NCBI GenBank assembly: GCA_029211065.1
Contig: JARGFK010000011.1
Location: 1-64,000, forward strand
Source: Desulfobacterales bacterium
GTDB taxonomy: Bacteria > Desulfobacterota > Desulfobacteria > Desulfobacterales > JARGFK01
Length of the DNA: 64,000 bases
Direction of reading: 5' to 3'
The notes under the pieces are model-generated. The model saw only the letters and a list, made by a program, of their open reading frames with translations, was not told where the DNA came from and did no database searches. Below, in pieces: positions 20,993 to 64,000 of this stretch (position 1 is the first letter of the stretch; every line of letters begins with the position of its first letter). Both the position numbers and the translations under genes were made by a program.

Positions 20993-21157
20993 AACTCATT
21001 CAACCTTCATTATTGATATGCATACACCAGACAGCCTGTTAATTCAACCCAGAGAGCCCGCCCCGAATTTTCCAGGATAAATGTCGCAGACTTTTCATCA
21101 GACGGCATTTGTGTTATGAGTATAGAGTAAAAGCATGAAAAAAAGGATGAATATGAC

Positions 21158-23149: not shown

Positions 23150-23159
23150 AAGAGACCCG

Positions 23160-26100: not shown

Positions 26101-26522
26101 AAGATTTTGTCATCATCGATTTTGAAGGCGAACCGGCCCGTCCCATATCCGAACGTCGCATTAAGCGCTCCCCCCTTCGGGATGTGGCCGGCATGCTCAG
26201 GTCATTTCACTACGCCGCCCATTTTGCGTTGATGGAGGTGGAAGAGCGCGGGCAGTCTCGACCGGGGGAGCGTCCATTTTTGGGCTCGTGGGCAAACTAC
26301 TGGCATATGTGGGTAGGCGCCATGTTTCTTAAGGACTATCTGAACGTTTCTGCTCAAGGAAAGTTTCTGCCCAGCAACCATGAGGACCTTTGCGTCCTTC
26401 TGGATATTTACCTGCTGGAAAAAAGCATCTACGAACTGGGCTACGAACTCAACAATCGGCCCGACTGGGCGCAGATTCCCCTTCATGGCATCTGCCAACT
26501 GACGGGGGCGTTGCAAGCGTAG
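23160..26522 (+). CDS. treS: Trehalose synthase TreS fused to maltokinase (Mak/Pep2)
   Basis: The N-terminal GH13 TreS domain ('[19 protein letters not shown]', 'MRLDAVPYL') is followed by a C-terminal about 450-aa maltokinase-like domain. The ATG at 23160 follows the glgE stop. Confidence 0.85.
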
Positions 26523-26558
26523 CCTTTCTGTAAAAAAAAGCGCGCCGGAGGAGGCGTT

Positions 26559-28466: not shown

Positions 28467-28941
28467 CGCGGCCGCCTCTGGGAGCAATCTGTCTGGGTGA
28501 AGGGCGCACCAGCTTCCTGGTGTGGGCCCCGAAAGCCAAACGCGTTTCACTTCACAGCCTGTCCCCAAATGAGTGGATGGTGCGGTTTGAAAAATTTCCT
28601 CGCGGCTATCACGGCGTAATCGTTGAAAACCTTCACCCCGGAACGCGCTACCTGTTTCGCCTCGACGACCGCCTGGAACGGCCGGATCCCGCGTCCCGAT
28701 TTCAACCAAAAGGCATTCACGGCCCCTCCGAAGTCCTTGATCCGCATTTTCCATGGAAGGACCACTGCTGGACCGGTATCTGTTTTACGAAATTCACGTT
28801 GGCGCTTACACCTCCGAAGGCACCTTTGACGCGATCATGCCGCATCTTGCGGATTTAAAAGAATTGGGGATAACCGCCGTCGAACTGGCATTGTCTCCTT
28901 ATGCTTTGATTGTACTTACACGAAGAAAGAACAGCGACTGA
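28463..28941 (+). pseudogene. treZ: Remnant of malto-oligosyltrehalose trehalohydrolase TreZ: only the N-terminal about 160 aa remain, with an internal frameshift near 28761-28787, truncated after the start of the catalytic domain
   Basis: ORF 28463..28858 ('FLVWAPKAKRVSL…DPHFPWKD') and ORF 28753..28941 ('YEIHVGAYTSEGTF…LGITAVEL') together match the TreZ N-terminus (CBM48 plus the beginning of GH13). The reading frame ends about 400 aa early, where the GH57 gene starts with an overlapping TGATG. Confidence 0.6.
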
Positions 28942-31367: not shown

Positions 31368-31386
31368 AAAAGCAAAGGAGCCATGC

Positions 31387-32883
31387 GTGAACATCCGCTC
31401 AAGCGGCGTCCTGCTGCCGGTCTTTTCCTTGCCGTCGCGATTTGGTATCGGTGATCTCGGCCCCGGTTCCCACAAGATGGTCGATTTGTTGCACGACGCC
31501 GGCCAGCGTTACTGGCAGGTGCTTCCCATCAACCCTACCGTTTCGGCCGGTTTTCATTCGCCTTACCAAAGCCCGTCGGCATTTGCTTTCAATCCGCTGC
31601 TGATCAGCCCGGAGGGTCTCTACGAAGACGGGCATCTATCCCGCCAAGACCTGCAAACGGCGCCCGTTTTTTCTGAAAAACAGATTGACTACGAAGCGGT
31701 CTCCCGGTTTAAGAAGCAGCTTTTTTTAAAAGCTTTTGAGCGGTTCGGGAAAAGAGGCGGCGATCCGGGATTTATTGAATTCTGTGAAAAAAACGATCCA
31801 TGGCTGCAAGATTTTTCCTGCTACATGGCATTTAAGACCCATTTTAAGGAAAAGACGTGGCGTGATTGGCCGGCTCCGATTCGAATGCGCCAAAAAGGTG
31901 CAACCCGGTCGCTCGCTAACCACTTGTTGGAAGAAATAGACTTCATTAAATTTTTGCAGTATATTTTTTGGGTGCAATGGCAGCGGCTAAAGGCCTATTG
32001 CAAAGGAACAGGGGTTCATATCCTGGGGGACATCCCCATCTATGTCCCTTATGACAGCGCCGATGTCTGGGCGAACCCGAAATTGTTCAAACTTGATCGA
32101 CAGCTGCGCCCCGAGGCTGTCTCAGGTGTACCCCCCGACTATTTCAGCAAGACCGGGCAGCTCTGGGGACACCCGGTCTACAGATGGACAGTTCATCAAA
32201 AAACCCGGTACGCGTGGTGGGGTTTTCGAATTTCCCATAATTTGGGTTTATTTGACGCGATTCGGATCGATCATTTCAGGGGGCTGGTAGCCTGCTGGGA
32301 AGTTCCTTCCGGAAAACGCACCGCCAAAAACGGAAAATGGGTCAACGTGCCTGCGGTCGATTTTTTTAACGAGATGATGCGGCGTTTTACGGCTTTTCCG
32401 GTCATTGCGGAAGACCTCGGCTACATCACGGCCGATGTGCGGGAAATCATGCGCCGCTATGATTTCCCGGGAATGAGGCTGCTCGTTTTCGGATTCGGCG
32501 GCGACTTGTCAATCAACCCCAATGCACCGCACAATATTGGTAGGGACTGTGTGATCTACACCGGAACCCATGACACCAATACCATCAGGGGATGGTATGA
32601 AGGGGACGCCGTCCAAAGTGAAAAAGAGCAGTTGCATGCCTACCTGGGCCGGAGGCTTTCCGCCGACGATCTGCCGCAGGAAATGATCCGGCTTGCCATG
32701 ATTTCGCCGGCGTTCCTGTGCATTATTCCCATGCAGGACCTTCTCTCCCTGGGAAAGGATGCCCGCATCAACATTCCTGGCCGGTCAGAAGGCAACTGGC
32801 TGTGGCGAATGACGCCGGCACAATTTTCAGCGGTCCCGCGCAAACAGCTCCGGCAAATGACCAGGCTGTATGCCAGGGCCTGA
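31387..32883 (+). CDS. malQ: 4-alpha-glucanotransferase (amylomaltase, GH77)
   Basis: Motifs 'SSGVLLPVFSLPS…GIGDLG', 'IRIDHFRG' and 'VIAEDLG' match GH77. Confidence 0.85.
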   Translation: MNIRSSGVLLPVFSLPSRFGIGDLGPGSHKMVDLLHDAGQRYWQVLPINPTVSAGFHSPYQSPSAFAFNPLLISPEGLYEDGHLSRQDLQTAPVFSEKQIDYEAVSRFKKQLFLKAFERFGKRGGDPGFIEFCEKNDPWLQDFSCYMAFKTHFKEKTWRDWPAPIRMRQKGATRSLANHLLEEIDFIKFLQYIFWVQWQRLKAYCKGTGVHILGDIPIYVPYDSADVWANPKLFKLDRQLRPEAVSGVPPDYFSKTGQLWGHPVYRWTVHQKTRYAWWGFRISHNLGLFDAIRIDHFRGLVACWEVPSGKRTAKNGKWVNVPAVDFFNEMMRRFTAFPVIAEDLGYITADVREIMRRYDFPGMRLLVFGFGGDLSINPNAPHNIGRDCVIYTGTHDTNTIRGWYEGDAVQSEKEQLHAYLGRRLSADDLPQEMIRLAMISPAFLCIIPMQDLLSLGKDARINIPGRSEGNWLWRMTPAQFSAVPRKQLRQMTRLYARA

Positions 32884-32978
32884 TACAGGGACCTCTTTAT
32901 CTCCACAGGCAGGCCAGGGCGGGCTGGAAAAGATGTTAAAAAGCATCCGGAAGAAAATCTTTGCGGCAAGAAGACCCG

Positions 32979-34757
32979 TCATCCATCGCCTGCCAATGTT
33001 ATCGCCGTGTCGACAAGTGACAGATGGCTGTATCCCTGGGGATAATTGCCCAACAGCCGCTTGGTCTTGAAATCGATATCCTCGCTCAACAGCCCAAGGT
33101 GGTTTCGATAGCCCAGCATTTTTTCAAACAGGGCCTCGGCCTCTTTTCTTTTTCCGATTTTCCACAGGCCCCTTATCAGCCAGAAGCTGCAGGCCGTAAA
33201 CGACGATTTCGGAACGCCGAAATCGTCGTGATTCCTGTAACGGTACATCAGCCCCTCCTTTTCGAGCCGTTTCCTTGTCAACATGACCGTGCTTACATAC
33301 TTCGAGTCGTCGGAAGATATGAATCCGTAATGCTCCAGCAGGAGGTTGGCGGCGTCCAGGTCTTTTTCGCCGTAAGCCTGGGTAAATGCCCCCAATTCAG
33401 CGTTCCATCCCTTTTCGAGAATATCCTTCAGGATGGTTTCCCGCATCTTCGACCATACCCGCACATAGCTCGGCATCCCGAAATATTGCGCGATCCGGGC
33501 GGCCCGATCCATGCTCACCCAGCAGAGCACCTTGGAAAAGGTGAAATGCTTGTTTGACCCCCGAAATTCCCATATGCCGCGGTCCTTTCGGGTCCAATTC
33601 TGTTCCACATGCCGGGCCAGGGTGCGAACGACGGTCCACAGATCCTCCCGGTTCTCGACCGCCTCGCGCTTGAAAATCGTCAGGTATTGATAAATCACGT
33701 CCAACACGACGCCAAAGATGTCATTTTGTTTTTGGCTGTAAGCCGCGTTTCCGATGCGGACCGGTCTTGAATTTTCATAACCGGCCAACCAATCCAACTT
33801 TTTTTCCGTCAGCTTTTTCTGCCCGTTGATGCCGTAAACAATCTGTATCTTCTCATTCTTAAATGGAATGACATCGATCACATAGTCCAGAAAACGCTTG
33901 GCGACCCGGTAGTGGCCCAGTTTTACCATCACGCTTACGGCCATGCCCGCATCCCGAAGCCAGCAGTATCGGTAGTCCCAGTTTCTTTCGGCGCCCGGGT
34001 CCTCCGGCAAGGACGTGGTGACCGCCGCAAGCATGGCGCCGGTCTTTTGATAGGTCAACAATTTCAGTACCAGGGCGCTTCGACCGATTTCATCATTAAA
34101 GCGTGAAAACCGCCGGGTCTTGGAGGACCAGATCAGCCAGTAGATCCGGGTCCTTTCGTACTCCAAAACAATGGCGTCGATGTTCAGCGGGGTGAGCTTC
34201 TGATTGTAGCTGAGCAGAAAAAAGCAATCCCGGTCGATGGCAATCGGTTCACCGGCCGCCACCCGGGAAAGCTCAAGATCGGAGTATAGATAGATGGACT
34301 CGTAAGGCCCCTTGACGGTTCCGGTTTTAATGTATTCTTTTCGCACCTCGGTCTTTACGTCATGTTGCGCGTATACCGGCCGCGGATTATAAATGACACG
34401 GATTTTCGGCTTGCCGGAAATGTGCCTGACATATCGGATGAGATCCGGGGGGCAGTAGTATAGCCCGGATTCGATCTTGTAGCGCGGCATAAAATCGATC
34501 AGCTCGAATCGATCTTCTCCATTGGAAAAGGCGGTCTTCAGAACGTTGGTTTTCGAGACATATCGTTGTTGGATGCCGTACTTGCCGGAGACCTCGATGG
34601 AAAACTCCCCCCCTTGCTGCGAATCCAGAATTTTGGCGAAAACAGCGGGGGAATCGAATGTGGGCAGACAACACCATTCAATCGCTCCCCGTTCCGATAC
34701 CAGTGCGGCGCTCGTGCAGTTGCCGATCACGCCGTAATTCAAATTTTTCATGTGCAC
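32979..34757 (-). CDS. Glycoside hydrolase family 15 (glucoamylase / trehalase-like)
   Basis: The N-terminus 'YGVIGNCTSAALVS…GAIEWCCLPTFDSP' and 'RYCWLRDA' are GH15 signatures. Length is 592 aa. Confidence 0.8.
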   Translation of the reverse strand: MHMKNLNYGVIGNCTSAALVSERGAIEWCCLPTFDSPAVFAKILDSQQGGEFSIEVSGKYGIQQRYVSKTNVLKTAFSNGEDRFELIDFMPRYKIESGLYYCPPDLIRYVRHISGKPKIRVIYNPRPVYAQHDVKTEVRKEYIKTGTVKGPYESIYLYSDLELSRVAAGEPIAIDRDCFFLLSYNQKLTPLNIDAIVLEYERTRIYWLIWSSKTRRFSRFNDEIGRSALVLKLLTYQKTGAMLAAVTTSLPEDPGAERNWDYRYCWLRDAGMAVSVMVKLGHYRVAKRFLDYVIDVIPFKNEKIQIVYGINGQKKLTEKKLDWLAGYENSRPVRIGNAAYSQKQNDIFGVVLDVIYQYLTIFKREAVENREDLWTVVRTLARHVEQNWTRKDRGIWEFRGSNKHFTFSKVLCWVSMDRAARIAQYFGMPSYVRVWSKMRETILKDILEKGWNAELGAFTQAYGEKDLDAANLLLEHYGFISSDDSKYVSTVMLTRKRLEKEGLMYRYRNHDDFGVPKSSFTACSFWLIRGLWKIGKRKEAEALFEKMLGYRNHLGLLSEDIDFKTKRLLGNYPQGYSHLSLVDTAITLAGDG

Positions 34758-44951: not shown

Positions 44952-46166
44952 TCAAGCAGTCTCGCCGTTTTGCTTTGCGCTTCCCGATGTGCATTCCGCC
45001 AGCGCCGCCAACAGGAATCCTTTGATGATAACGCCCTGTAAGTTATTGGTTTCGTCAACGACTGCAATGGGGTAGATATTGTCTGTCAAAAGCGGAAACA
45101 GGTCAATGGCCGGTGTGTCCGGAGACACCCGCTGAATATCCCGGATCAGAATGCGATCCAGTGTTTTATCGCCGCGCCGGATGGCTTCAGCAGCATCCGT
45201 GGCGGTAACAATACCGGCCAGTTGGCGGTCTTTACGAACAAAAATTTTGGATATGCCGGCTTTTTTCATTTTTCGCATGGCTGAATGAGGGCCGTCTGTC
45301 CCATAATAGGCAATGGCCTCGGATTTTTTTATGATTTTTTCGGCAGTGATGATCTTGCTCATGTCCACGTCTTCGACAAACTTGGCCACATATTCGTTGG
45401 CCGGATTGGTCAAAATCTGCTCAGCGGTTCCAGTCTGCACGATTCCCCCGTCTTTCATCAGTACGATTCGGTCGCCAATTTTTATGGCTTCGTCTAAGTC
45501 ATGACTGATAAAAACGATTGTCTTCCGCATTTTATCCTGCAGCTTGATGAGCTCGTCCTGCATTTCTCGGCGGATCAGTGGGTCCAGAGCACTAAAGGCT
45601 TCATCCATCAACATGATGTCGGCATCCAAGGCCAATGCCCGCGCGAGTCCGACACGTTGCTGCATGCCGCCGCTGAGTTGGTCCGGAAATGCGTCTTCCC
45701 ATCCCTTGAGCCCCACCTGTTCCAAGGCTTTCATGGCAGAATCTTTTCTTTTGGCTGATTCGACTTTCTGGATTTCGAGGCCGTATTCTACGTTGCGAAG
45801 CACAGTCCGATGAGGGAAAAGAGCAAAGTTCTGAAAGACCATACCGAAGTGTTTCTGACGAAACTCGCGCAGCTCTTTTTCGGACAGACCGATAACGTCC
45901 TGCCCATCGACAGTGACCTTGCCGGCGGTGGGTTCGATCAACCGATTGATGCATCGCACCAGCGTTGATTTGCCGCTGCCCGAAAGCCCCATGACAACGA
46001 GGATCTCTCCTTCGCTGACGTCAAAAGACACATCGACCAAACCCACTCCGTGGCGGGTTTTTTCCATGATTTCTTGTTTGCTGAGCCCCTGCTCGACCAG
46101 ACGCATTGCCTTTTCAGGATGGGAACCGAAGATTTTGAATAGATTTTGTATGACGATTTTTTTCAT
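44952..46166 (-). CDS. proV: Glycine betaine/proline ABC transporter ATP-binding protein with tandem CBS domains
   Basis: Walker A 'GLSGSGKST', the signature 'LSGGMQQRV' and a C-terminal CBS pair are present. Confidence 0.85.
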   Translation of the reverse strand: MKKIVIQNLFKIFGSHPEKAMRLVEQGLSKQEIMEKTRHGVGLVDVSFDVSEGEILVVMGLSGSGKSTLVRCINRLIEPTAGKVTVDGQDVIGLSEKELREFRQKHFGMVFQNFALFPHRTVLRNVEYGLEIQKVESAKRKDSAMKALEQVGLKGWEDAFPDQLSGGMQQRVGLARALALDADIMLMDEAFSALDPLIRREMQDELIKLQDKMRKTIVFISHDLDEAIKIGDRIVLMKDGGIVQTGTAEQILTNPANEYVAKFVEDVDMSKIITAEKIIKKSEAIAYYGTDGPHSAMRKMKKAGISKIFVRKDRQLAGIVTATDAAEAIRRGDKTLDRILIRDIQRVSPDTPAIDLFPLLTDNIYPIAVVDETNNLQGVIIKGFLLAALAECTSGSAKQNGETA

Positions 46167-55036: not shown

Positions 55037-56914
55037 TCAATAACTTCCTAAAATTTTCAAAAAATCGGTCCTTTCAATCAACCGGTTTAAAATCGGTTTA
55101 AATGTTTCCGCCTCCACATCCGCTTCCACATCGGCATAAAACATATACTCCCATGGCTTGCCGTGAATGGGCCGCGATTCCAGTTTTACCAGGTTGATGT
55201 TGTTTTCCGCAAAAATCTTCATTACCTCAAACAGCGATCCCGGATGGTGATCGGTGGAAAAAATAAGCGCTGATTTCCCACAGTCCCCTTTTTTAAGGGC
55301 CTGGGTCCCGACGATTACAAAGCGGGTATAGTTGCGGGGGTCGGTTTCAATCCCTTCCTCAACGACCGTCATTCCGTATATCTCGGCGGCCTCTTTACTG
55401 CCGATGGCGGCATCGCCGGGGGTGTGCACTTTGCTGATCGTCTTAACCGCGCTGGCGGTATCTTTGACCGGCACCAGCTCCCATCTGCCGTGGGATTCCA
55501 GAAACCGGCCACACTGTTGAAACGCCTGAGCCGGCGACAAAACCCGTTTAATGTCTCTAAGTTGGGTCCCCGGATGCGCGATGAGATGGTGAATAATGCG
55601 CAGGGTTAATTCCCCGATGATTCTCAAATCATATTCGAGTAGAAGGTCATAGTTGGCATGAATGCTTCCGGACAGGGAGTTTTCCAGGGGCACCACTCCG
55701 AAATTGACTTCATTGGTTTTGACAGCCTCAAAAATGGACCGAAAGGTCGGTTTGGATACGGCGGCAACCTTTGAGCCGAAATACTGGTTGCAGGCCCTGT
55801 GGCTGTAGGTCCCGGGTTCGCCCAGAAAAGCGGCCGAAGGTTTGCTTTTTCCGATATTTTGCTGCAAAAGACTGACGACCGTCGCCTTTTCCAGATAGCC
55901 GAAATCCAGCTGCTTGCCCACCACCGGCGCAATCACATAGATATCGCGCATCAGTTGTCCAAACTGTTTCGGATAAAGACTCTGGGCGCCGTCGGAAAGG
56001 GCCTTGTCCGGTTCATTGTGCACCTCGATAATCAGGGCGTCCGCGCCTGCGGCAACTGCCGCCCGGGCCATGGGGCTGACCTTTTCGCGGATGCCGGTGG
56101 CATGGCTCGGATCGATCATGACCGGCAGATGGGTCAACGCCTTTAAAACCGGAATGGCGGATAGATCCAGGGTGTTGCGGGTATAGGGTTCAAACGTGCG
56201 GATGCCTCTTTCGCATAGAATCACCTGGCCATTCCCCTCGGAAAGAATATATTCGGCCGACATCAGCCACTCTTCAATGGTTGACGACAACCCGCGCTTT
56301 AAGATAACCGGCTTGTTCATCTGCCCCACACATTTTAAAAGCTCGAAATTCTGCATGTTGCGCGCACCGATTTGCACGATGTCAACATATTTTAGCATGA
56401 GTTCCCCCTGGGCGGGGGAAGTCATTTCACTGGCCACCCGCAGACCGGTCGCATCCCGCACCTCCGCCAGAATTTTCAGCCCTTCTTCGCCCATGCCCTG
56501 AAAAGAATAGGGGGAAGATCTGGGTTTAAAAGCGCCGCCCCGGAATAGGACCGCGCCATATTTTTTGACCTCATGGGCAATCGCCAGGGCCTGCTCTCTG
56601 TTTTCGATGGCGCAGGGCCCGGCCGCCACGGCAATCCGTTCCCCGCCGATGGTCACATCGCCGACCTGTACATGGGTGTCTTCGGGATGCATCTGGCGGC
56701 TGACCAGTTTAAACGCGGTTGAAATGGGAATGACTTTTTCAATCCCCGGCAGTTTTTCAAAAATTTGAACGTCCTTGTTTTTACCTCCTACCGCCCCGAT
56801 AACATTCTGGCCGGCGCCGGCAATTTCCCGAACGATGCATCCTTGCCCGGAAAGCGTTGAGTGAATGATACTTTTTTCTTTTTCCGTAATTTCCTTTTTT
56901 AACACCAGCAGCAT
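55037..56914 (-). CDS. Bifunctional 3-deoxy-7-phosphoheptulonate (DAHP) synthase (type I-beta) / prephenate dehydratase with ACT domain
   Basis: The N-terminal about 340 aa belong to the KDO8P/DAHPS-I-beta family ('AAGPCAIE', 'KPRSSPYSFQG', 'MIDPSHA'). The C-terminal about 280 aa match a PDT domain ('AAFLGEPGTYSH', 'TRFVIV') plus ACT. Confidence 0.8.
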   Translation of the reverse strand: MLLVLKKEITEKEKSIIHSTLSGQGCIVREIAGAGQNVIGAVGGKNKDVQIFEKLPGIEKVIPISTAFKLVSRQMHPEDTHVQVGDVTIGGERIAVAAGPCAIENREQALAIAHEVKKYGAVLFRGGAFKPRSSPYSFQGMGEEGLKILAEVRDATGLRVASEMTSPAQGELMLKYVDIVQIGARNMQNFELLKCVGQMNKPVILKRGLSSTIEEWLMSAEYILSEGNGQVILCERGIRTFEPYTRNTLDLSAIPVLKALTHLPVMIDPSHATGIREKVSPMARAAVAAGADALIIEVHNEPDKALSDGAQSLYPKQFGQLMRDIYVIAPVVGKQLDFGYLEKATVVSLLQQNIGKSKPSAAFLGEPGTYSHRACNQYFGSKVAAVSKPTFRSIFEAVKTNEVNFGVVPLENSLSGSIHANYDLLLEYDLRIIGELTLRIIHHLIAHPGTQLRDIKRVLSPAQAFQQCGRFLESHGRWELVPVKDTASAVKTISKVHTPGDAAIGSKEAAEIYGMTVVEEGIETDPRNYTRFVIVGTQALKKGDCGKSALIFSTDHHPGSLFEVMKIFAENNINLVKLESRPIHGKPWEYMFYADVEADVEAETFKPILNRLIERTDFLKILGSY

Positions 56915-56975
56915 TTTAATTCCTCCTAATGAAATTGACTCACAAGCGCGTTATGGTCTATGACCCCATGGGCAA

Positions 56976-57050
56976 ATAAAAAACCCCGGGAGAATTCTCC
57001 CGGGGCTGAAAAAAACCCCGGGCAGACCGTTGCTGGGTCCACCCGGGGAG
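56976..57050 (-). terminator. Attenuator: two consecutive rho-independent terminator hairpins, each followed by a U-run, in the leader of the DAHP synthase / prephenate dehydratase gene
   Basis: The minus-strand RNA reads ccccgggtggacccagcaacggtctgcccgggg-UUUUUUU-cag-ccccgggagaauucucccgggg-UUUUUU. The stems are 7 bp and 9 bp. Confidence 0.6.
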
Positions 57051-57070
57051 TTTGTGCTATTATTTAAAGG

Positions 57071-57259: not shown

Positions 57260-58186
57260 TTACTCCGCTCGCAGCAATCCATGATACGCATAAATATCAC
57301 TGACTGTCTTGGATGATAAAAACTGCAAAAAATCGCCCCCCCACCTGCCGCCGTCGCCAACGATGCCGGCGTGCGTCAGGCTGATAATATTTTCTGGGGC
57401 CGGTTGAGGATCCAACGTCGTACCGCCCAGAGGAATCATCTCAAACAGCGCCGGGAAAATCCGGATATACCGTAATGCCAGATGATAATAAACGATCGCA
57501 ACATCGGCGCGATCATCAGCCAGGGCCTGGGGTACCTCCCGGTGATGAATCCGTTCGCCGTAAACGATCCCTGTTCCGGCCGCATCAGTCAAAAATGACA
57601 ACTCAATCCCTTCTCCGGCAGCCATTCCTTTTAAGGTATCCACATATCCCCTGTAGCTCACCGTTTCAGTTTCCGGGTTTGATAAAAACAGGCGCAGATT
57701 TTGTTGTGCCAGATCCGCAACTCCTGAAATATTTTTCGGATTTCCTTTTTTGACCAATAAGACACTGCCGCGATTTCGCATAAACGGCTTGTGGGTCTGC
57801 ATATAACCTTCAGCAACCAGATTGTCGAGCACCTTCGGCGGGCTGATAAAGACATGGGGAGATACGCGGATGATCAGATTGCCCATTTGAAGAGCACCAG
57901 CCTTCAGCAGGTTCACAATAGGGCCTGGCGGGGTTGTAGCATAGAATATTCCGGACAACTCTTTATGCTGCTGTAAAAAAAGATCCAGGCATTCCCTAAG
58001 CGCCATGTGGTGATTTCCGTCAGAAAGTACCACCAGTTCCGCATTCGCTGGGTCCCCATGAAAGTCCAGGCAGATGTTTGAACCCGGTTGATTCCAGTGG
58101 AAACATTGTCTATTTTCGCCAGTATTCTCCTCTGGCCAGTCAAGATAGGCTGGTTCTTTCTCAGGGTTGTCAGTCTGCTGTATCAT
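57260..58186 (-). CDS. ModA/PBP2-like substrate-binding-fold protein with no obvious signal peptide, last gene of the tctCBA operon
   Basis: ModA-like blocks are present ('ELVVLSDGNHHMAL', 'PHVFISPP', 'VLLVKKGNPKNISGVADL', 'DVAIVYYHLA'). The N-terminus is hydrophilic. The tctA stop lies 5 nt upstream. Confidence 0.45.
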   Translation of the reverse strand: MIQQTDNPEKEPAYLDWPEENTGENRQCFHWNQPGSNICLDFHGDPANAELVVLSDGNHHMALRECLDLFLQQHKELSGIFYATTPPGPIVNLLKAGALQMGNLIIRVSPHVFISPPKVLDNLVAEGYMQTHKPFMRNRGSVLLVKKGNPKNISGVADLAQQNLRLFLSNPETETVSYRGYVDTLKGMAAGEGIELSFLTDAAGTGIVYGERIHHREVPQALADDRADVAIVYYHLALRYIRIFPALFEMIPLGGTTLDPQPAPENIISLTHAGIVGDGGRWGGDFLQFLSSKTVSDIYAYHGLLRAE

Positions 58187-58190
58187 ACCG

Positions 58191-59687
58191 TTATTTTTTT
58201 TTCATCGAAGTTTTAGCTGTCTTGAAAACGATATAACCCGTAACACACATTAAGATCATTGCCACTGGACGCTTGAAGAACATAAACGTATCAAGCTCCG
58301 ATGCAATAATGACCTGCTGAAGCGCAGTCTCCCAAATCGGCGTCAGAATAAAACCGATAATAAAACAGATGTGGGAATAATCATACTTTCTCATGAAATA
58401 TGCAAGAAATGCAAAAAACAGCATGAGCATGACATCAAAAACATTATACGCCCCCAGATAGGAGCCCATGATGCAGGTGAAGATGATTATGGGATAGAGG
58501 ATCGGCCGGGGTGTTTGTACCGCCTTACAAGAGGCCCTTAATCCCAGACGCCCGACAATCAGCAAAAAGATATTGGCAATGATTAGACTGCCGTATATGG
58601 AGTAGATGAATTGCGCATTCTGTTCAAACATCAAAGGCCCGGGGATCATGCCGTGTATGATGAACGCGCCGATGAGCAGGGCCGCGGCCACATTGCCCGG
58701 AATCCCCAGGGTGAACAATGGAATCAGGCTGGACGCACAGACCGCACTGTTGGCCGATTCCGAAGCGGCAATGCCCTCAAGGGCGCCCATACCAAATTTT
58801 TCAGGATGTTTTGATCTTTTCTTTGCCTGGTCGTAAGCGAAAAAGGAGGCCACCGGCGCGCCCAGACCGGGCATGGCGCCAACCGCGGTACCCGCTATGG
58901 CTGAACGCAGGAGTGTTTTGATATTACGGCGATACTCGGGCCAGGAAAGGAAGCGGTCTTCCGGTTTGTCGGAGAACGTGCAGGTGGCTTCGGAACCGTC
59001 GATATTATTATTGTAATGACTCTCCAATTGGATGATGATTTCAGCGAAAGCCAGCATCCCGATACCGATAGGAATCAGTGCGATGCCCCTTTCCAATTTA
59101 TAAAGCCCAAAGGTCAAACGCGGCAGTGCGGACACCGGTTCCATGCCGATGGTGCCTACAAAGATGCCGAGTGCAGCGGCGATAAGGCCCCGTGCAAGCG
59201 ATTTCGTTCCCAACCCGGCAATGATGGTCATGGCCATGCAGATCAAGGCAAAAATTTCCGGCGGTCCCATGTACAGGGCCACCGTCGCGAGAGGTGCGGC
59301 CACTAAAATCAGTACCCAGGTCGCAAAAAAATCCCCGGAAACCGACCCATAGAGTGCCATGCGCAAGGCTTTTTCGCCCTTACCTTGTAACGCCAGCGGG
59401 TAGCCGTCCCACGAGGTTGCCGCAGCTTCGGGTGTGCCCGGTGTATTGAGCAGTACGCCGGAGATGGCGCCCCCATAAAAAGCCCCCTTATTGAGGCCCA
59501 CCAGAAAGCCGATGGCCGACACGGGGGACATGTAGTACGATAGCGGTATGCACAGGGCAATGGCCATGGGCCCGTTAATGCCCGGAATCGCCCCTGCGAT
59601 CATGCCCGCCGTGACCCCCACCAGCACAAACAGCAAGTTTAAGGGGTGCAGTGAATCTATGAATCCTGCAATAATTAGTTCAAACAC
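58191..59687 (-). CDS. tctA: Tripartite tricarboxylate transporter large permease TctA
   Basis: The protein is a polytopic membrane protein of 498 aa. The N-terminus 'GAIPGINGPMAIALCIPL' is present. Confidence 0.85.
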   Translation of the reverse strand: MFELIIAGFIDSLHPLNLLFVLVGVTAGMIAGAIPGINGPMAIALCIPLSYYMSPVSAIGFLVGLNKGAFYGGAISGVLLNTPGTPEAAATSWDGYPLALQGKGEKALRMALYGSVSGDFFATWVLILVAAPLATVALYMGPPEIFALICMAMTIIAGLGTKSLARGLIAAALGIFVGTIGMEPVSALPRLTFGLYKLERGIALIPIGIGMLAFAEIIIQLESHYNNNIDGSEATCTFSDKPEDRFLSWPEYRRNIKTLLRSAIAGTAVGAMPGLGAPVASFFAYDQAKKRSKHPEKFGMGALEGIAASESANSAVCASSLIPLFTLGIPGNVAAALLIGAFIIHGMIPGPLMFEQNAQFIYSIYGSLIIANIFLLIVGRLGLRASCKAVQTPRPILYPIIIFTCIMGSYLGAYNVFDVMLMLFFAFLAYFMRKYDYSHICFIIGFILTPIWETALQQVIIASELDTFMFFKRPVAMILMCVTGYIVFKTAKTSMKKK

Positions 59688-59714
59688 ACCTGCTCCTATC
59701 GGATACGCTCCGGT

Positions 59715-60215
59715 TTACGGCATGGGGATACCGAGTCCATATCGCATGACCGCACACATAAAACCCACCGTAACAGCAGCTACTATCGCCATGGTAACTG
59801 GCCGGCGCTGACCGCAAAGGTATTGGATCAACAACATAAACACGAGCCCGGCCGGGATAAAACCGATCCAATTCATGGCGGGCATCAACAGGATGCAGGG
59901 GATCATGAAACAGACAAGACGCCACAAATACACCCTTTCTGCCAGGGGAATATCCCCTGATTGACCCGCTTTGGACTTTGTTGGTTTAGATTTAAAATGA
60001 GAAAAAAAATTAAGCCCCAGCGACAACAATGAAAGGGCCAATATGCTCCCGAAAGCCACATGGGGCAGAAGCGCAGAAGAGACACCATAACCCGGATATG
60101 GGGGTGTAAAGGTGGGAATGACCCATAGTAAAAAAACCAAACTCCCCAACGCGACACCTGCAGAGACGAGATTTTCTCTTTTCTTTCTCGTCATACCATC
60201 CTCACTCGAATTCAT
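59715..60215 (-). CDS. tctB: Tripartite tricarboxylate transporter small subunit TctB
   Basis: It is a small 4-TM protein between tctC and tctA. The start may be the internal Met at 60191. Confidence 0.6.
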   Translation of the reverse strand: MNSSEDGMTRKKRENLVSAGVALGSLVFLLWVIPTFTPPYPGYGVSSALLPHVAFGSILALSLLSLGLNFFSHFKSKPTKSKAGQSGDIPLAERVYLWRLVCFMIPCILLMPAMNWIGFIPAGLVFMLLIQYLCGQRRPVTMAIVAAVTVGFMCAVMRYGLGIPMP

Positions 60216-60338
60216 TGTTTATCATAGCAGCAATCTGCCAGTGCAGATTCTTTTTTGGTACCGACGCTTTAGGGCCGTTATAGAGATCCCGAATCGGGAT
60301 CTCTAACGACCGTTTCGGTGGGTCCGGTGCTGTTAATT

Positions 60339-61310
60339 TTACTTCCCTGCTTTTGCCTGGCGCCCAAATTTATCATAGGCACTCTTCATATACGTCTTTG
60401 CGGCATCCTTGCCATAGTCCACTGGCCCCATTTTCAGCTTTATGGCAACAAATTCACGAAACGCTTTATCCGTTGAGAGTTTCATCAGGATCTCTTCCAG
60501 TTTGTCCGCTATGTCACCGGGCAGGCCTTTTGGCGCAGTCAGCACTACAAACATTTCCACGGATTCGTCCCAACCCTGTTCCTTAACGGTGGGGACATCT
60601 TGAAGTTCTTTACGACCTTTGGGGTCTTTAAGCCGTGTGGGTGTTGATGCTGCCAGCAGCGTCAATTTTTCCGGCACGTACCCAAACAAAATGGCGCCCA
60701 GGTGTCCTATGTTGGCATGACCACCCATAACGGCTGATATGATCGATGGTCCGCCCTGGCTCGGCATAAGGGCCAGCTTGACCCCCTCACTGGCGGCGAT
60801 GCGCTTCATCACATCACGGTCGTCAGACCCCTGAAACATATAGATCAGGCCCCCTTTGTTTTCCTTCTTCGCCCACGCAAAGGCGTCTTTTAAGCCCTTC
60901 CAGCCACGATCGGGTGTGCACACAAAACCGCTCTGATTGAGCCCCAGCATGGAAATGAATTGAAAATCATCAAACTTGTAGCTTGTTTTGACGAAATGGG
61001 GTGAATAGGTGTACGCGGCCGTAGCACCCACACCCAGGGTATATCCATCGGGTTTAGCGTTTTTCAGGTCCATGGCCATTACGCTCCCATGGGACCCCCC
61101 GGGCGTGTTGATCACCAGTACGGGTTGACCCAGTTCAGCACTCATGGCATCAGCCAGCTTTCGTGTCAACAAATCAATCTGGGCGCCGGGCTTTACCATG
61201 GTAAGCATTTTTATCGGTCGATCCGGGTAGTCAGCCGCAAAAACGGGCTGGATAACGCAAAGGCCGGCAAGGGCTGCATACAAAAACAAGGTCATGAAGG
61301 TGGAACGCAT
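60339..61310 (-). CDS. tctC: Tripartite tricarboxylate transporter substrate-binding protein TctC (Bug family). The start is assigned to the signal-peptide Met.
   Basis: The signal peptide is 'MRSTFMTLFLYAALAGLCVIQPVFAADYPDRPIK…'. The longer ORF extends to 61460, but its extra N-terminus is hydrophilic and basic. Confidence 0.75.
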   Translation of the reverse strand: MRSTFMTLFLYAALAGLCVIQPVFAADYPDRPIKMLTMVKPGAQIDLLTRKLADAMSAELGQPVLVINTPGGSHGSVMAMDLKNAKPDGYTLGVGATAAYTYSPHFVKTSYKFDDFQFISMLGLNQSGFVCTPDRGWKGLKDAFAWAKKENKGGLIYMFQGSDDRDVMKRIAASEGVKLALMPSQGGPSIISAVMGGHANIGHLGAILFGYVPEKLTLLAASTPTRLKDPKGRKELQDVPTVKEQGWDESVEMFVVLTAPKGLPGDIADKLEEILMKLSTDKAFREFVAIKLKMGPVDYGKDAAKTYMKSAYDKFGRQAKAGK

Positions 61311-61948
61311 GCTCTTTCTCCTTTTGGTTGAATTTTTTGTACGCGCAACAACACGAAAACGATTTTCCCTGTTATTGGCGAACGTAGGCTTCACGTTTTT
61401 CAGATTTTGATAGTCGCTCATAAATATCCTCCTTTTTATATGGGTCATTACACTGGTCATGGTTAAATTCCCGAGATTGCCGTTTTCATATTTTTCCGGA
61501 ATTTTAACTATATTTCTTTAAAAGTCACCCGAATATCGTGCAGACGATAAACAGCGATTATTTTTTCCGTGTAGATAAAAGAAGCTCTGGAAAAACGGTG
61601 CAGAAGCTCGAAATAGTCCAACGGCATCTCTTGAAAGAGATTTTTCCGGTGAAGGGATAAGAACTTGCTTTTTTTAGGCCGAGCCATACAAAGTTTCGGC
61701 TTGTGAGTCAAGGAAAAGACCACTGCTGCAGTTTAGATAATAGGCATCACATTGAGGCCGGCCAAAGGAACTCGATGTTCTTAATCGTTTATCCCCGGCA
61801 AATTGAACGAGTCATGACAGCTTCTACTTATTAAAAATCTTCGTCATTATCGTCCATCCGATAGATTTGTTTTATTTATTACGTTTAGTAAGGATATCCA
61901 GAAATATAGATTTGGAGGAACATTTATTTTCATTGAAAGGAGTAAAAC

Positions 61949-63700
61949 ATGTCTAAAGAACAACCAGCAGACATCAATGAAATCCCAACGGAGGTCATTG
62001 AAACGGATTTACTAATTGTCGGCGGCGGCAATGCCGGCTGTTTTGCCGCAATTGAAGCCAAGAAGCTCAACCCTGAGCTCAAGGTCGCCATCATGGAAAA
62101 AGCTCATATCAGCAGAAGCGGCGCAACCGCCGCCGGTATGGACGCCATCAACACCTATATCCCCCCCGGCAAAACCCCGGAAGACCTGGTTCGGTGGAGT
62201 CGTTCACAGGTCGGTGGAGGACCGCTTCGGGAGGATTTGGCCCTGAGTAATGCAAAAATTTTAAACGGGGCTGTAGAGGATCTTGCCTCCTGGGGTCTTC
62301 CCATCATCCGGGATGATGAAGGCACGCCCCAGTATCGCGGGGGCTGGGACATTTCCATCCACGGCGAGCAGCTCAAACCCATCATGGCGGAAAAGGCCAT
62401 GGAGGTCGGTGCGGAAGTTTACAATCGTGTGGCTGCCACCAACTTGCTGATGGACGGCGACAAATGCGTCGGCGCCATGGGATTCGGCGTCAAGGATGGC
62501 AAGTTTTATGTGTTTCGCGCCAAAGCCACCGTTGTTTCAACCGGCGGGGCTTGCGGTCTGTATAAGTCTTATACCAGCGACGCCACCAACTCCCACCATC
62601 AAACCTGGATGTGCCCATTTAACGTTGGATCCGGATATGCCATTGGGATTCGCAAAGGCGCCGAGATGACCTCTTTTGAACAGCGATGGGTGGCCACCCG
62701 GACCAAAGATCACTGCGGACCGGTGGATACGATTTCAGTGGGTTATAAATCCAATATCATCAACGCCAAGGGCGAGAAGATTTTAGAAAAGCACTATGCG
62801 CATATGGGCGGGGACAAAGCGCCGCGTTACATTCGCGCCAACGCCCCCATGGAGGAATGGTTGGCCGGCAGGGGACCGACCTATGCGGATACCACGCACT
62901 TGACGGCGGAGGACGTTAGAGACCTCAAAACAGATTATCTGAACGAGAGGCCATCGTTTGTTCTTTTTCTAGCCAGCCGGGGCCAGGACATCACCAAGGA
63001 CCCGATTGAAATCTATGGCAGTGACCCGTATGTTGTGGGGGGCCATACCGGCAGCGGCTACTGGGTGGAAATCAACCGAATGACCACCATTCCCGGCCTT
63101 TTTGGCGCCGGCGAATCAGCCGGCGGCAACCCCAATAAGTTCGTGGGTGGCTGTGCAGCCGAAGGCAAACTAGCGGCCCGCGGCGCTGTGGAATATTTAG
63201 GCTCGGTTTCTCTGCCCGAACTGAATTCACAGCAGGTGGAACAGGAGAAGGAACGGGTCTTTGCTCCGCTTTTACGGGGTGCCGAATTTGACGGCGTCGC
63301 CCCCCTTGAGATGGAAGAGCGCATGCAGCGGCTGATGGATGAATATGCCGGCGGAACCTCTCAGTTCTACCGGACCAATGAAGAACGGCTGGATTACGCC
63401 CTTAAACACCTGAAGATGCTCCAGGAACAGGTGAAGTTCCTTTATGCCAAAGACCTTCACGATCTCATGAGCGCCCACGAAGTGGTAGACCGGCTGGATG
63501 TGGCAGAAGTCCTAACGCATCACCTGAAGTTTCGCAAAGAAACCCGCTGGAAGGGCTGGCAGACCCGCTCGGATTACCCGGATATGGATCCAAAATTCGA
63601 TTGTTTCGTGGAAAGCAAACGGAATATTGAAACAGGCGAAATAGAAACGTTCACCCGACCCTATGAACAAATCGTTCCCGGGGATCGGTTCAAAGCATAA
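61949..63700 (+). CDS. aprA: Adenylylsulfate reductase alpha-subunit (AprA)-like FAD flavoprotein, a short (583 aa) homolog
   Basis: Motifs 'TDLLIVGGGNAGCFAA', 'ERSGATAAGMDAINTYI', 'NRMTTIPGLFGAGESAGG', 'MDEYAGG' and 'FRKETRWKGW' follow the AprA pattern. A strong RBS 'aaggag' is present. Confidence 0.65.
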   Translation: MSKEQPADINEIPTEVIETDLLIVGGGNAGCFAAIEAKKLNPELKVAIMEKAHISRSGATAAGMDAINTYIPPGKTPEDLVRWSRSQVGGGPLREDLALSNAKILNGAVEDLASWGLPIIRDDEGTPQYRGGWDISIHGEQLKPIMAEKAMEVGAEVYNRVAATNLLMDGDKCVGAMGFGVKDGKFYVFRAKATVVSTGGACGLYKSYTSDATNSHHQTWMCPFNVGSGYAIGIRKGAEMTSFEQRWVATRTKDHCGPVDTISVGYKSNIINAKGEKILEKHYAHMGGDKAPRYIRANAPMEEWLAGRGPTYADTTHLTAEDVRDLKTDYLNERPSFVLFLASRGQDITKDPIEIYGSDPYVVGGHTGSGYWVEINRMTTIPGLFGAGESAGGNPNKFVGGCAAEGKLAARGAVEYLGSVSLPELNSQQVEQEKERVFAPLLRGAEFDGVAPLEMEERMQRLMDEYAGGTSQFYRTNEERLDYALKHLKMLQEQVKFLYAKDLHDLMSAHEVVDRLDVAEVLTHHLKFRKETRWKGWQTRSDYPDMDPKFDCFVESKRNIETGEIETFTRPYEQIVPGDRFKA

Positions 63701-63719
63701 TTTTAAGGAGGAAATCAAT

Positions 63720-64000
63720 ATGCCACCGAGAGTTGACAAAGAAAAATGTGACGGCTGTAAAGCTGAAGAAGAAACACTCTGTGAACAAATCTGCCCGGGA
63801 GATCTCATGACCCTTGGCGAAAACAAGAAAGCCTATTGCCGGCAGCCTCGTGATTGCTGGGACTGCATGTCTTGTACGAAAGTTTGTCCGGTGGGAGCCA
63901 TTGAAACCCGAATCCCTTACCAGCTGGGTTACCATGGCGCCAAGCTTATCCCGATGATGGGAACGGACAACATTACCTGGACGTGTGTGGACATTAACGG
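63720..64000 (+). CDS. aprB: Adenylylsulfate reductase beta-subunit (AprB)-like 4Fe-4S ferredoxin, truncated at the window end
   Basis: 'MPPRVDKEKCDGCKAEEETLCEQICPGDLM…CWDCMSCTKVCPVGAI' parallels the AprB N-terminus. The RBS 'aaggagg' is present. Confidence 0.6.
   Translation, partial: MPPRVDKEKCDGCKAEEETLCEQICPGDLMTLGENKKAYCRQPRDCWDCMSCTKVCPVGAIETRIPYQLGYHGAKLIPMMGTDNITWTCVDIN

Follow-up and report, generated by a model that had tools for sequence, protein, structure and literature searches.

An AprAB-like flavoenzyme of a Desulfobacterales bacterium and the divergent tripartite-transporter operon beside it share an operator-like palindrome

Closest described systems

Canonical AprBA, the dissimilatory reductase of adenosine 5'-phosphosulfate (APS) (Archaeoglobus fulgidus, PDB 1JNR/2FJA; Desulfovibrio gigas, 3GYX), pairs a flavoprotein carrying flavin adenine dinucleotide (FAD) with a subunit that holds two [4Fe-4S] clusters. 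The architecture of this enzyme is also found in a Methanothermococcus thermolithotrophicus (Mt) enzyme (PDB 8A8O) that is a reductase of 3'-phosphoadenosine 5'-phosphosulfate (PAPS) (Jespersen & Wagner 2023, PMC10322725), a type defined by the reduction of PAPS rather than APS and by an alpha2beta2 assembly. AprAB-like paralogues were described with DiSCo (Neukirchen & Sousa 2021, PMC8477390) as having a tail-less AprB-like subunit and an AprA-like subunit that has gaps in its capping domain and helical domain. They occur in Deltaproteobacteria and Nitrospira, with sodium:sulfate symporters nearby, and were proposed, as one pooled family, to act in sulfur assimilation from the neighboring sat, cysC, and asr genes. 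Unexplained AprAB proteins are also reported from sulfite respirers that lack sat. Bilophila wadsworthia is reported to have no sat, two aprAB-like clusters, and better growth with 10 mM APS (PMC11610557), and AprAB without Sat or QmoAB is described for Taurinivorans muris (PMC10507020). In the passages searched, both accounts treat the genes as an ordinary APS reductase and mention no linked transporter; the word "tricarboxylate" does not occur in PMC11610557.

Here we describe an AprAB-like pair, AprA'B', encoded at the end of a 64,000-nucleotide stretch (the window) of contig JARGFK010000011.1 from a Desulfobacterales bacterium. Two divergent operons occupy positions 57260 to 64000, with tctCBA and a fourth gene on the minus strand and aprA'-aprB' on the plus strand. 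The importer and reductase operons have a conserved cis-element in common, and the clade to which AprA' belongs is set apart by its own residue pattern and is accompanied by an importer gene across phyla. The reading that we favor, with a probability of roughly 0.55, is that the locus is one half of a regulon controlled by a Crp-family protein, which would import an anionic sulfo-compound and reduce it to sulfite for respiration.

Organization of the locus

The features of the two operons are as follows.
61949..63700, plus strand: aprA', encoding a 583-aa flavoprotein with FAD that belongs to the "GWD" clade of the AprAB-like family; strong ribosome-binding site AAAGGAG (MDF1590709.1).
63720..64000, plus strand: aprB', a ferredoxin subunit with two [4Fe-4S] clusters and the ribosome-binding site AAGGAGG; the first 93 of about 108 codons are present, the gene being cut by the window end.
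61848..61863, no strand: operator-like palindrome TATCGTCCATCCGATA, situated 86 nt before the start codon of aprA'.
61534..61549, no strand: operator-like palindrome TATCGTGCAGACGATA, in the divergent intergenic region, toward tctC.
60339..61460, minus strand: tctC, the periplasmic substrate-binding protein of a tripartite tricarboxylate transporter (Pfam TctC, 97.4 bits).
59715..60215, minus strand: tctB, the small membrane subunit of the transporter (Pfam TctB, 43.4 bits).
58191..59687, minus strand: tctA, the large membrane subunit of the transporter (Pfam TctA, 461.8 bits).
57260..58186, minus strand: the fourth gene of the tct operon, a 308-aa cytoplasmic protein of ModA/Sbp fold (Pfam SBP_bac_11, 72.8 bits; MDF1590705.1).

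The first-pass annotation of this DNA had described a 583-aa AprA-like flavoprotein followed by an AprB-like gene that runs into the window end. Both genes were confirmed at the positions listed above, with E values for AprA' of 2.8e-108 against Archaeoglobus fulgidus AprA and 9.5e-153 against the alpha subunit of the M. thermolithotrophicus PAPS reductase. The aprA' product is identical to NCBI entry MDF1590709.1, which is named there "adenylyl-sulfate reductase subunit alpha." The order is A then B, and aprB' starts 19 bases past the aprA' stop codon.

On the minus strand, TctC, TctB, and TctA each score above the Pfam gathering score, and their genes are contiguous and co-oriented, which identifies them as a tripartite tricarboxylate transporter (TTT). 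The earlier naming of a tctCBA transporter holds for 58191 to 61460; the start of the region, 57260 to 58186, is a substrate-binding-protein (SBP)-fold gene and not a tct gene. It is separated from tctA by 4 nt, and its product has no signal peptide. The tctC open reading frame (ORF) as listed carries 50 extra N-terminal codons, and the true start is probably at 61310 (Met51), because a typical signal peptide begins at this methionine in the translation. Counted from 61310, the gap between the two operons is about 640 bp. A scan of this long tctC-aprA' intergenic region with Rfam returned no riboswitch or leader, the sole match being a chance-level S15. Visible in the window are the importer operon with the operators, the complete aprA', and most of aprB'.

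Family placement of AprA' and AprB'

AprA' contains the Pfam domains FAD_binding_2 and Succ_DH_flav_C. Its best solved relative is 8a8o_A (513 bits), followed by 1jnr_A (366 bits). It fails the canonical aprA equivalog TIGR02061 (392.9 bits, against a cutoff of 641.75) and narrowly passes NCBIfam NF005331, "adenylyl-sulfate reductase subunit alpha" (594.4 bits, against 557), a model centered on the Methanothermococcus PAPS-reductase type, as shown by the 884 bits of the Mt enzyme. With 583 aa, AprA' is shorter by 60 aa than the AprA of A. fulgidus (643 aa) and by 79 aa than that of D. gigas (662 aa); its deletions lie in the capping domain and the helical domain.

A family survey of 1.84 billion representative proteins, combined with a column-by-column residue table, showed that identity is at least 61% within the AprA' clade and below 49% to anything else surveyed. 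In a neighbor-joining tree this clade has a bootstrap support of 96/100 and lies outside both the canonical AprA clade (100/100) and the PAPS-reductase group. The earlier suggestion of a divergent Apr-family paralog is borne out by this tree, in which AprA' does not nest within bona fide AprA clades, and by the TIGR02061 score.

The AprB' subunit was judged on orthologues, since the window cuts the gene. Full-length orthologues have 108 aa, compared with 150 to 166 aa in canonical AprB, and are without the 42- to 58-aa C-terminal tail. A 108-aa orthologue aligns with AprB residues 1 to 108 of 1jnr_B (107 bits) and with 3gyx_B, and AprB' is nearer to canonical AprB than to the beta subunit of the PAPS reductase (69.5 bits). 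Its score against the aprB model TIGR02060 (91.7 bits) is below the cutoff. All eight cysteines are retained, as is the electron-transfer tryptophan equivalent to Trp-B48.

The tail-less AprB-like subunit and the AprA-like gaps in the capping and helical domains that define the DiSCo AprAB-like family are both found here. The A-then-B order and the short alpha subunit, which had been flagged as atypical, are indeed present; together with the tail-less beta subunit they are not peculiar to this locus, because they are the norm for described AprAB-like paralogues (PMC8477390; 8A8O). What distinguishes the AprA' clade from the pooled DiSCo family is a residue signature, importers, an operator, and an Hdr module of its own, as well as a neighborhood without sat, cysC, or asr. 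Judged from these comparisons, AprA'B' is a distinct, conserved branch of the known broad AprAB-like family, neither canonical AprA nor the Methanothermococcus PAPS-reductase type. Literature searches found no characterized member of the clade. This placement suggests that the name "APS reductase" is not established for the clade and that the database label is an overextension; because databases carry that label, AprA' can be counted as evidence for sulfate reduction in metagenomes.

The active site of AprA'

Residues were mapped through gap-free stretches of HMMER alignments to 1JNR and 8A8O, and the roles of the A. fulgidus AprA residues were taken from Meyer and Kuever (PMC2211403). The sulfate/FAD site is intact: Asn74, Trp234, Arg265, and His398 of A. 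fulgidus correspond to N68, W220, R251, and H366 of AprA', and the adenine-clamp Arg317 corresponds to R296. All five residues are invariant across 79 clade members. N68 and W220 together with R251, H366, and R296 occur only in the Apr-like sequences of the survey and are absent from the next outgroups.

Differences lie around the ribose and phosphate. The clade signature is W83, R130, W133, D134, D260, V264, and N396, and the mapped replacements are as follows.
A. fulgidus Tyr95: AprA' Trp83.
A. fulgidus Glu141: AprA' Arg130, which equals Mt Arg118.
A. fulgidus Gln143-Trp144-Gln145: AprA' Gly132-Trp133-Asp134.
A. fulgidus Val273-Gly274: AprA' V259-D260.
A. fulgidus Leu278 (clamp): AprA' Val264.
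A. fulgidus His446: AprA' Asn396.

The comparison with residues known to bind APS thus divides the pocket in two, with the sulfate/FAD residues and the adenine clamp kept and the ribose/phosphate contacts not kept. The PAPS specificity of the archaeal enzyme has been ascribed to Lys120, Arg121, and Ser122 (PMC10322725). This triad reads G132-W133-D134 in AprA', and D134 is clade invariant, so that an invariant acidic side chain stands at the position that the 3'-phosphate would take. The T-G-Q...K signature of the PAPS-reductase group is likewise not present, the AprA' sequence being V-D-V...N. It follows from this residue pattern that AprA' probably keeps the machinery for sulfite chemistry at FAD N5 and for binding a flat ring, in a pocket that is predicted to be unlike those of both characterized relatives.

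Gene neighborhood across related loci

The neighborhood was compared in 80 loci from species-representative genomes plus several metagenome contigs (locus numbers with the prefix L), and counts refer to 79 to 82 loci, 79 being those with full AprA' ORFs. Loci were annotated by tblastn with reference proteins and a gene caller weighted by GC content at third codon positions, with checks against Pfam and NCBIfam, and the gene calls are crude. The hosts belong to Desulfobacterota (relatives of Desulfovibrio, Bilophila, Desulfocapsaceae, Desulfobaccales, Desulfarculus, and Syntrophobacterales), Nitrospirota, and a few other groups.

A constant core was found among the loci, consisting of one importer followed by aprA', aprB', and a Crp-family regulator. 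The importer directly beside aprA'B' belongs to DASS (the Na+:sulfate symporter family) in 40/79 loci, is TctCBA in 24/79, and is a TauE/TSUP permease in 10/79. The pairing of importer and aprA'B' is kept across phyla, and the active-site signature is identical in the three importer groups. The Crp-family gene adjoins in 70/82 loci. Beyond the core genes no further neighbor is conserved in the 82 loci; in particular, no sulfur-assimilation gene (sat, cysC/D, asr) and no phosphatase for 3'-phosphoadenosine 5'-phosphate (PAP) is conserved near aprA'B'. Motifs of Sat and of CysC, the APS kinase, were found neither in the 82 loci nor in the 64-kb window. A GLSGSGKST P-loop in the window ORF at 44952 to 46166 was rejected as APS kinase for want of a matching LDGD motif nearby, and a CysH-like ECGIH motif in L070 is antisense to tctA and was taken as chance.

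In about 31 loci an HdrA2-like gene (HdrA+MvhD) directly follows aprB', including relatives whose AprA' is 93 to 97% identical to that of the window. In these close relatives the gene is a full-length HdrA+MvhD fusion with HdrA2 as its best model (549 bits). Its partners vary among the loci and are either a small HdrC with HdrB, a fusion of a NarI-like membrane domain with HdrC together with HdrB, or a set of Fe-S and NAD-binding proteins. The downstream HdrC-like protein with the NarI-like membrane domain is a weak match to QmoC (81 bits), and the HdrB-like CCG protein scores 237 bits; the HdrA2-, HdrC/QmoC-, and HdrB-like scores all lie below the curated cutoffs. The gene arrangement recalls QmoABC and HdrA2B2C2 in having an HdrA+MvhD gene followed by NarI/HdrC-like and HdrB-like genes. 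It differs from QmoABC in that a single HdrA-like gene takes the place of QmoA and QmoB and in the presence of an HdrB-like subunit, which QmoABC lacks.

The metagenome contig L088 was used as a proxy for the sequence past position 64000. Its AprA' is 97.4% identical to that of the window, its AprB' is identical at 93/93 visible residues, and its left side matches the window gene by gene (DAHP synthase/prephenate dehydratase, SBP-fold gene, tctA, tctB, and tctC; DAHP, 3-deoxy-D-arabino-heptulosonate 7-phosphate). After the 108-aa AprB', L088 continues with genes for HdrA2-like (783 aa), NarI/HdrC-like (584 aa), and HdrB-like (289 aa) proteins and with crp (231 aa). L001 (96% identical) and L005 (93%) show the same continuation. 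By analogy with these relatives, a Qmo-analogous, noncanonical electron module is expected directly downstream of the window. The first-pass annotation had stressed the absence of sat and qmo. For sat this stands in the window and in the 82 loci, but the lack of qmo is an edge effect of the window, because L088 goes on with the Hdr-like genes and crp. The downstream check that it proposed, carried out on the relatives that are 93 to 97% identical, recovered HdrA2-, HdrC-, and HdrB-like genes, and neither canonical qmoABC nor sat.

The Bilophila loci L065 and L070 have the order tctCBA-aprA'B'-crp and no Hdr module. Their AprA' belongs to the same clade, with 71% identity and an identical signature.

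Two features of individual loci were also observed. A PhnD-like periplasmic binding protein (Pfam Phosphonate-bd, with a signal peptide) is encoded right before the DASS gene in L006, L010, L035, L039, L045, L047, L051, and L054, and the operator described in the next section often precedes this PhnD-like gene in DASS loci; a DASS transporter assisted by a binding protein would be unusual. In L085, positions 1314 to 1819 at the start of an 845-kb contig hold short fragments with a weak FAD_binding_2 match, ahead of a Crp-tctCBA-SBP-fold operon, and these are possibly a decayed aprA'.

A shared operator-like palindrome

Alignment of the intergenic regions revealed the palindrome TATCG-N6-CGATA. 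It occurs exactly twice in the 64-kb window, both copies lying between tctC and aprA'. The TATCGTCCATCCGATA site is conserved in the alignment with L001, L005, L021, and L025, and the TATCGTGCAGACGATA site is present also in L001, L005, and L088. Just downstream of TATCGTGCAGACGATA, at 61528 to 61501, a minus-strand pair of -35/-10 elements resembles a promoter by consensus match. When one mismatch is allowed, the window contains 6 matches, compared with 1.3 expected.

Across the 1.33 Mb of loci there are 72 exact palindromes, compared with 1.27 expected. In 54/82 loci an exact copy stands no more than a few hundred bases upstream of aprA', of the importer gene (whichever of the three families it belongs to), or of both, and many loci have equivalent palindromes 35 to 206 nt upstream of aprA'. 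In extended form the consensus reads WYTATCGnCnnGnCGATARW. In L006 one copy is upstream of a sulfotransferase gene. The importer and reductase operons therefore have a conserved cis-element in common, and the link between the pair and the Tct transporter, noticed earlier from adjacency, is strengthened both by this palindrome, which precedes both operons, and by the pairing kept across phyla.

In the adjacent Crp-family proteins, the phosphate-binding cassette retains its Gly and Arg (64/64). The recognition helix is unlike that of Escherichia coli CRP, in agreement with a different operator. TATCG-N6-CGATA is a candidate operator that the Crp-family protein may bind. Canonical boxes were rejected as alternatives: the FNR box (TTGAT-N4-ATCAA) occurs upstream of aprA' in 1/85 loci, and the CRP box (TGTGA-N6-TCACA) in 2/85. 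PMC5701242 gave no relevant indication of a link to HcpR and nitrosative stress.

The transporter cassette and its accessory gene

The AlphaFold2 model of the SBP-fold protein has a mean predicted local distance difference test score of 86.4, and its best Foldseek matches are binding proteins for molybdate and sulfate together with PEB3 and AcfC, all of types that bind tetrahedral oxyanions or small anions. The gene follows tctA in at least nine aprA'-linked loci (L021, L023, L025, L049, L062, L066, L085, L087, and L088). In the sister strains L001 and L005 the slot after tctA is taken by a PAPS-type sulfotransferase, which resembles tyrosylprotein and CurM sulfotransferases and has the 5'-phosphosulfate-binding loop and the R-x7-S motif. 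Sulfotransferase genes are limited to about 4/82 loci (L001, L005, L006, and L010).

The aprA'-linked transporters cohere from Bilophila to Desulfobacterales, with 75 to 85% identity in TctA and 62 to 80% in TctC. The nearest solved relatives of TctC are Bug/TTT binding proteins, which bind carboxylates; characterized TTT systems also carry sulfonates, an example being SauXYZ with sulfoacetate (PMC10413351). When the window is compared with its sister strains (L088), the flanks are 95 to 97% identical, whereas the Tct and SBP-fold proteins are only 62 to 79% identical, and the window TctA and TctC are nearer to those of distant loci such as L087 than to those of L088. The transporter cassette appears to have been exchanged between lineages, because its identity is far below that of the flanks and it is closer to distant loci. 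This suggests that the uptake part of the regulon is swapped by recombination. Close relatives also have two tandem tctA genes of 499 aa each (L088, 4456 to 7479; L004/L005, 4754 to 7892), where the window has one.

Proposed function and alternative explanations

The regulon reading introduced at the outset builds on the gene content, clade identity, residue pattern, conserved synteny, and shared operator described above. The direction of transport is predicted to be inward: TctCBA would import the substrate, and a DASS symporter or a TauE/TSUP permease would take the same position in other hosts. Within the cell, N5 of the reduced FAD of AprA' would attack the sulfur atom, as in APS reductase, and this two-electron reduction would yield sulfite and a leaving group. 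Electrons would reach AprA' through the two [4Fe-4S] clusters of AprB'. The putative donor is the HdrA2-like flavoprotein with its HdrC/HdrB-like partners, one version of which is membrane anchored, and these would play the part that QmoABC plays for canonical AprBA. The sulfite would then feed DsrAB respiration.

Exogenous APS is the leading candidate substrate, because the catalytic and adenine-binding residues are kept and because of the Bilophila data and the orphan AprAB of T. muris, a possible member of the AprA' clade. Some other sulfonucleotide or sulfate ester comes close behind, because the ribose/phosphate part of the pocket is remodeled and more acidic. Local sulfate activation is unlikely to feed AprA'B', because neither the loci nor the window contains a Sat or CysC motif. 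The fold of the cytoplasmic fourth gene product, that of tetrahedral-oxyanion binders, also counts in favor of an imported sulfo-compound. Thiosulfate and sulfolactate were considered as substrates; T. muris AprAB was undetected on either (PMC10507020), which is weak evidence against both.

Several points weigh against the regulon reading. Four to five ribose/phosphate contacts for APS are replaced, including by two invariant Asp residues, and the changes Tyr95W, Gln145D, Gly274D, and His446N are clade invariant; two positively charged residues at the AprA channel entrance fall within the AprA' deletions. For these reasons APS may bind differently or may not be the substrate. Transport of nucleotides is not known for the DASS, TTT, or TSUP importer families. 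The Bilophila and D. desulfuricans-type loci have no recognizable operator, the regulon model gives no explanation for the role of the sulfotransferase or SBP-fold accessory gene, and the neighbor-joining tree, being distance based, leaves the deep branching order open. The growth of Bilophila on APS was not tied to the aprAB-like genes by genetics (PMC11610557), and the T. muris AprAB proteins escaped detection in the tested conditions (PMC10507020).

The alternative with the most similar chemistry, raised in the first-pass annotation as a genuine APS reductase in a noncanonical arrangement, is a dissimilatory isoenzyme that would use APS made inside the cell by Sat, with the transporter importing sulfate and the Hdr-like genes replacing Qmo. 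It would account for the NF005331 score, for the retention of all catalytic residues and the adenine clamp, for the DASS genes in half of the loci, and for the closer match of AprB' to canonical AprB (107 bits) than to PAPS-reductase beta (69.5). An HdrA-type partner also recalls the qmoAB-hdrBC arrangements of Gram-positive sulfate reducers (PMC4148979). Against this, AprA' scores 393 against the 642 of TIGR02061, its clade lies outside canonical AprA, and its pass of NF005331 is marginal; four to five ribose/phosphate contacts are replaced, and sat is found in 0/82 loci. The hosts are mostly named sulfate-reducer genera that should, we presume, already have aprBA-qmoABC. Finally, an identical active site is found beside TTT and TSUP importers, as well as in Bilophila, reported to be sat-less (PMC11610557). 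This explanation is therefore disfavored, and we regard it as unlikely. In all, the locus resembles canonical AprBA in its fold family, its cofactors, the N74/W234/R265/H398 site with R317, the match of AprB' over AprB 1 to 108 with the electron-transfer Trp, and HdrA-related partner genes comparable to QmoAB. It departs from it in subunit lengths, gene order, TIGR02061 and TIGR02060 scores, the Y95W, Q145D, G274D, and H446N changes, and the presence of a dedicated importer and regulator instead of sat and qmoABC.

A PAPS reductase like the Methanothermococcus enzyme, either assimilatory or recycling PAPS made by a neighboring sulfotransferase from imported sulfate esters, would fit the best solved relative, 8A8O (513 bits, about 45 to 50% identity), with which the pair shares an alpha subunit of about 570 to 580 aa, a tail-less beta subunit of about 105 aa, the A-then-B order, the catalytic Asn/Trp/Arg/His with the Arg clamp, an Arg at the position of A. 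fulgidus Glu141 (Arg130, Mt Arg118), and a pass of NF005331. It would also give a role to the PAPS-type sulfotransferase in the same operon or regulon of L001, L005, L006, and L010, although this gene is confined to about 4/82 loci. The clade is separate, the Lys-Arg-Ser triad is replaced by Gly-Trp-Asp with its invariant acidic residue in the place of the 3'-phosphate, and V-D-V...N stands for T-G-Q...K. Moreover, the context of AprA'B' is without ATP sulfurylase, a conserved APS kinase motif, or PAP phosphatase and has instead an importer, a Crp-family regulator, and Hdr-like genes, and the hosts are sulfur respirers, whereas that of the Mt enzyme is a methanogen. We consider a PAPS reductase improbable. 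Comparably improbable is a substrate without sulfur, such as a di- or tricarboxylate that Tct or DASS would supply for reduction by a soluble fumarate-reductase-like enzyme. AprA' does lie within the fumarate reductase/succinate dehydrogenase flavoprotein superfamily, in which Arg251 and His366 are superfamily-wide substrate-binding residues; TTT and DASS classically carry carboxylates, and so do the nearest solved relatives of TctC bind them. But the combination of Asn68 and Trp220 with Arg251, His366, and Arg296 is, within the survey, confined to Apr-like sequences, the partner ferredoxin is of the AprB and not of the SdhB/FrdB type, and a TauE/TSUP permease stands in for the importer in 10 loci. 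Nearly all hosts seen are sulfur respirers such as Desulfobacterota and Nitrospirota, and the accessory proteins are a sulfotransferase or have an oxyanion-binder fold.

A more ambitious form of the regulon reading, which we put forward tentatively and hold to be rather doubtful, is that of a novel respiratory system in which a dedicated importer (TTT, DASS, or TSUP) and an Apr-derived flavoenzyme would strip sulfite from an exogenous activated sulfo-compound, powered by an HdrA-type module that is possibly electron bifurcating. The donor may be APS that other microbes release, some sulfate ester, or a sulfonucleotide of another kind, and the swappable accessory gene, together with the exchange of transporter cassettes, would fit the system to a range of sulfated donors. 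If this were true, Bilophila, a gut pathobiont, and other sulfite and sulfate reducers would respire sulfur without the ATP cost of sulfate activation.

The regulon as proposed bears on the unexplained "AprAB" of the sat-less gut sulfite respirers Bilophila, where the genes belong to the AprA' clade, and Taurinivorans, where they may do so. The compact arrangement of importer, regulator, defined operator, and, in many hosts, an electron module of its own makes this puzzle directly testable. Should the substrate be an activated sulfate supplied from outside, the system would be an ATP-saving route to hydrogen sulfide, with relevance to gut health and to sulfur cycling in sediments.

Other features of the window

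Next to the tct operon, positions 55037 to 56914 on the minus strand encode a single 625-aa protein that combines the DAHP-synthase ferredoxin-like domain, DAHP synthase, prephenate dehydratase, and ACT; the same fusion adjoins the module in L005 and L088. Directly upstream of it, at 56972 to 57052 on the minus strand, an element of about 75 nt gives several subthreshold Rfam matches, including the trpB noncoding RNA motif and anti-hemB, the best of which (E value, 6e-4) is below the gathering threshold. This element may serve as an attenuator or a leader for the biosynthesis of aromatic amino acids. A 638-aa ORF at 7164 to 9080 on the plus strand matches no Pfam family at an E value of 1e-5 or less.

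Genes for alpha-glucans and trehalose form an uninterrupted block at positions 18794 to 34757. The block is made up of an OtsA-OtsB fusion (732 aa, on the minus strand), a GlgE-type maltosyltransferase, an alpha-amylase/maltokinase-like fusion (1,154 aa, TreS-Pep2-like), a branching enzyme, a GH57+DUF3536 protein, a 4-alpha-glucanotransferase, and a GH15 glucoamylase/trehalase-like gene, and has the appearance of a complete GlgE pathway, here in a metagenome-assembled genome of the Desulfobacterales.

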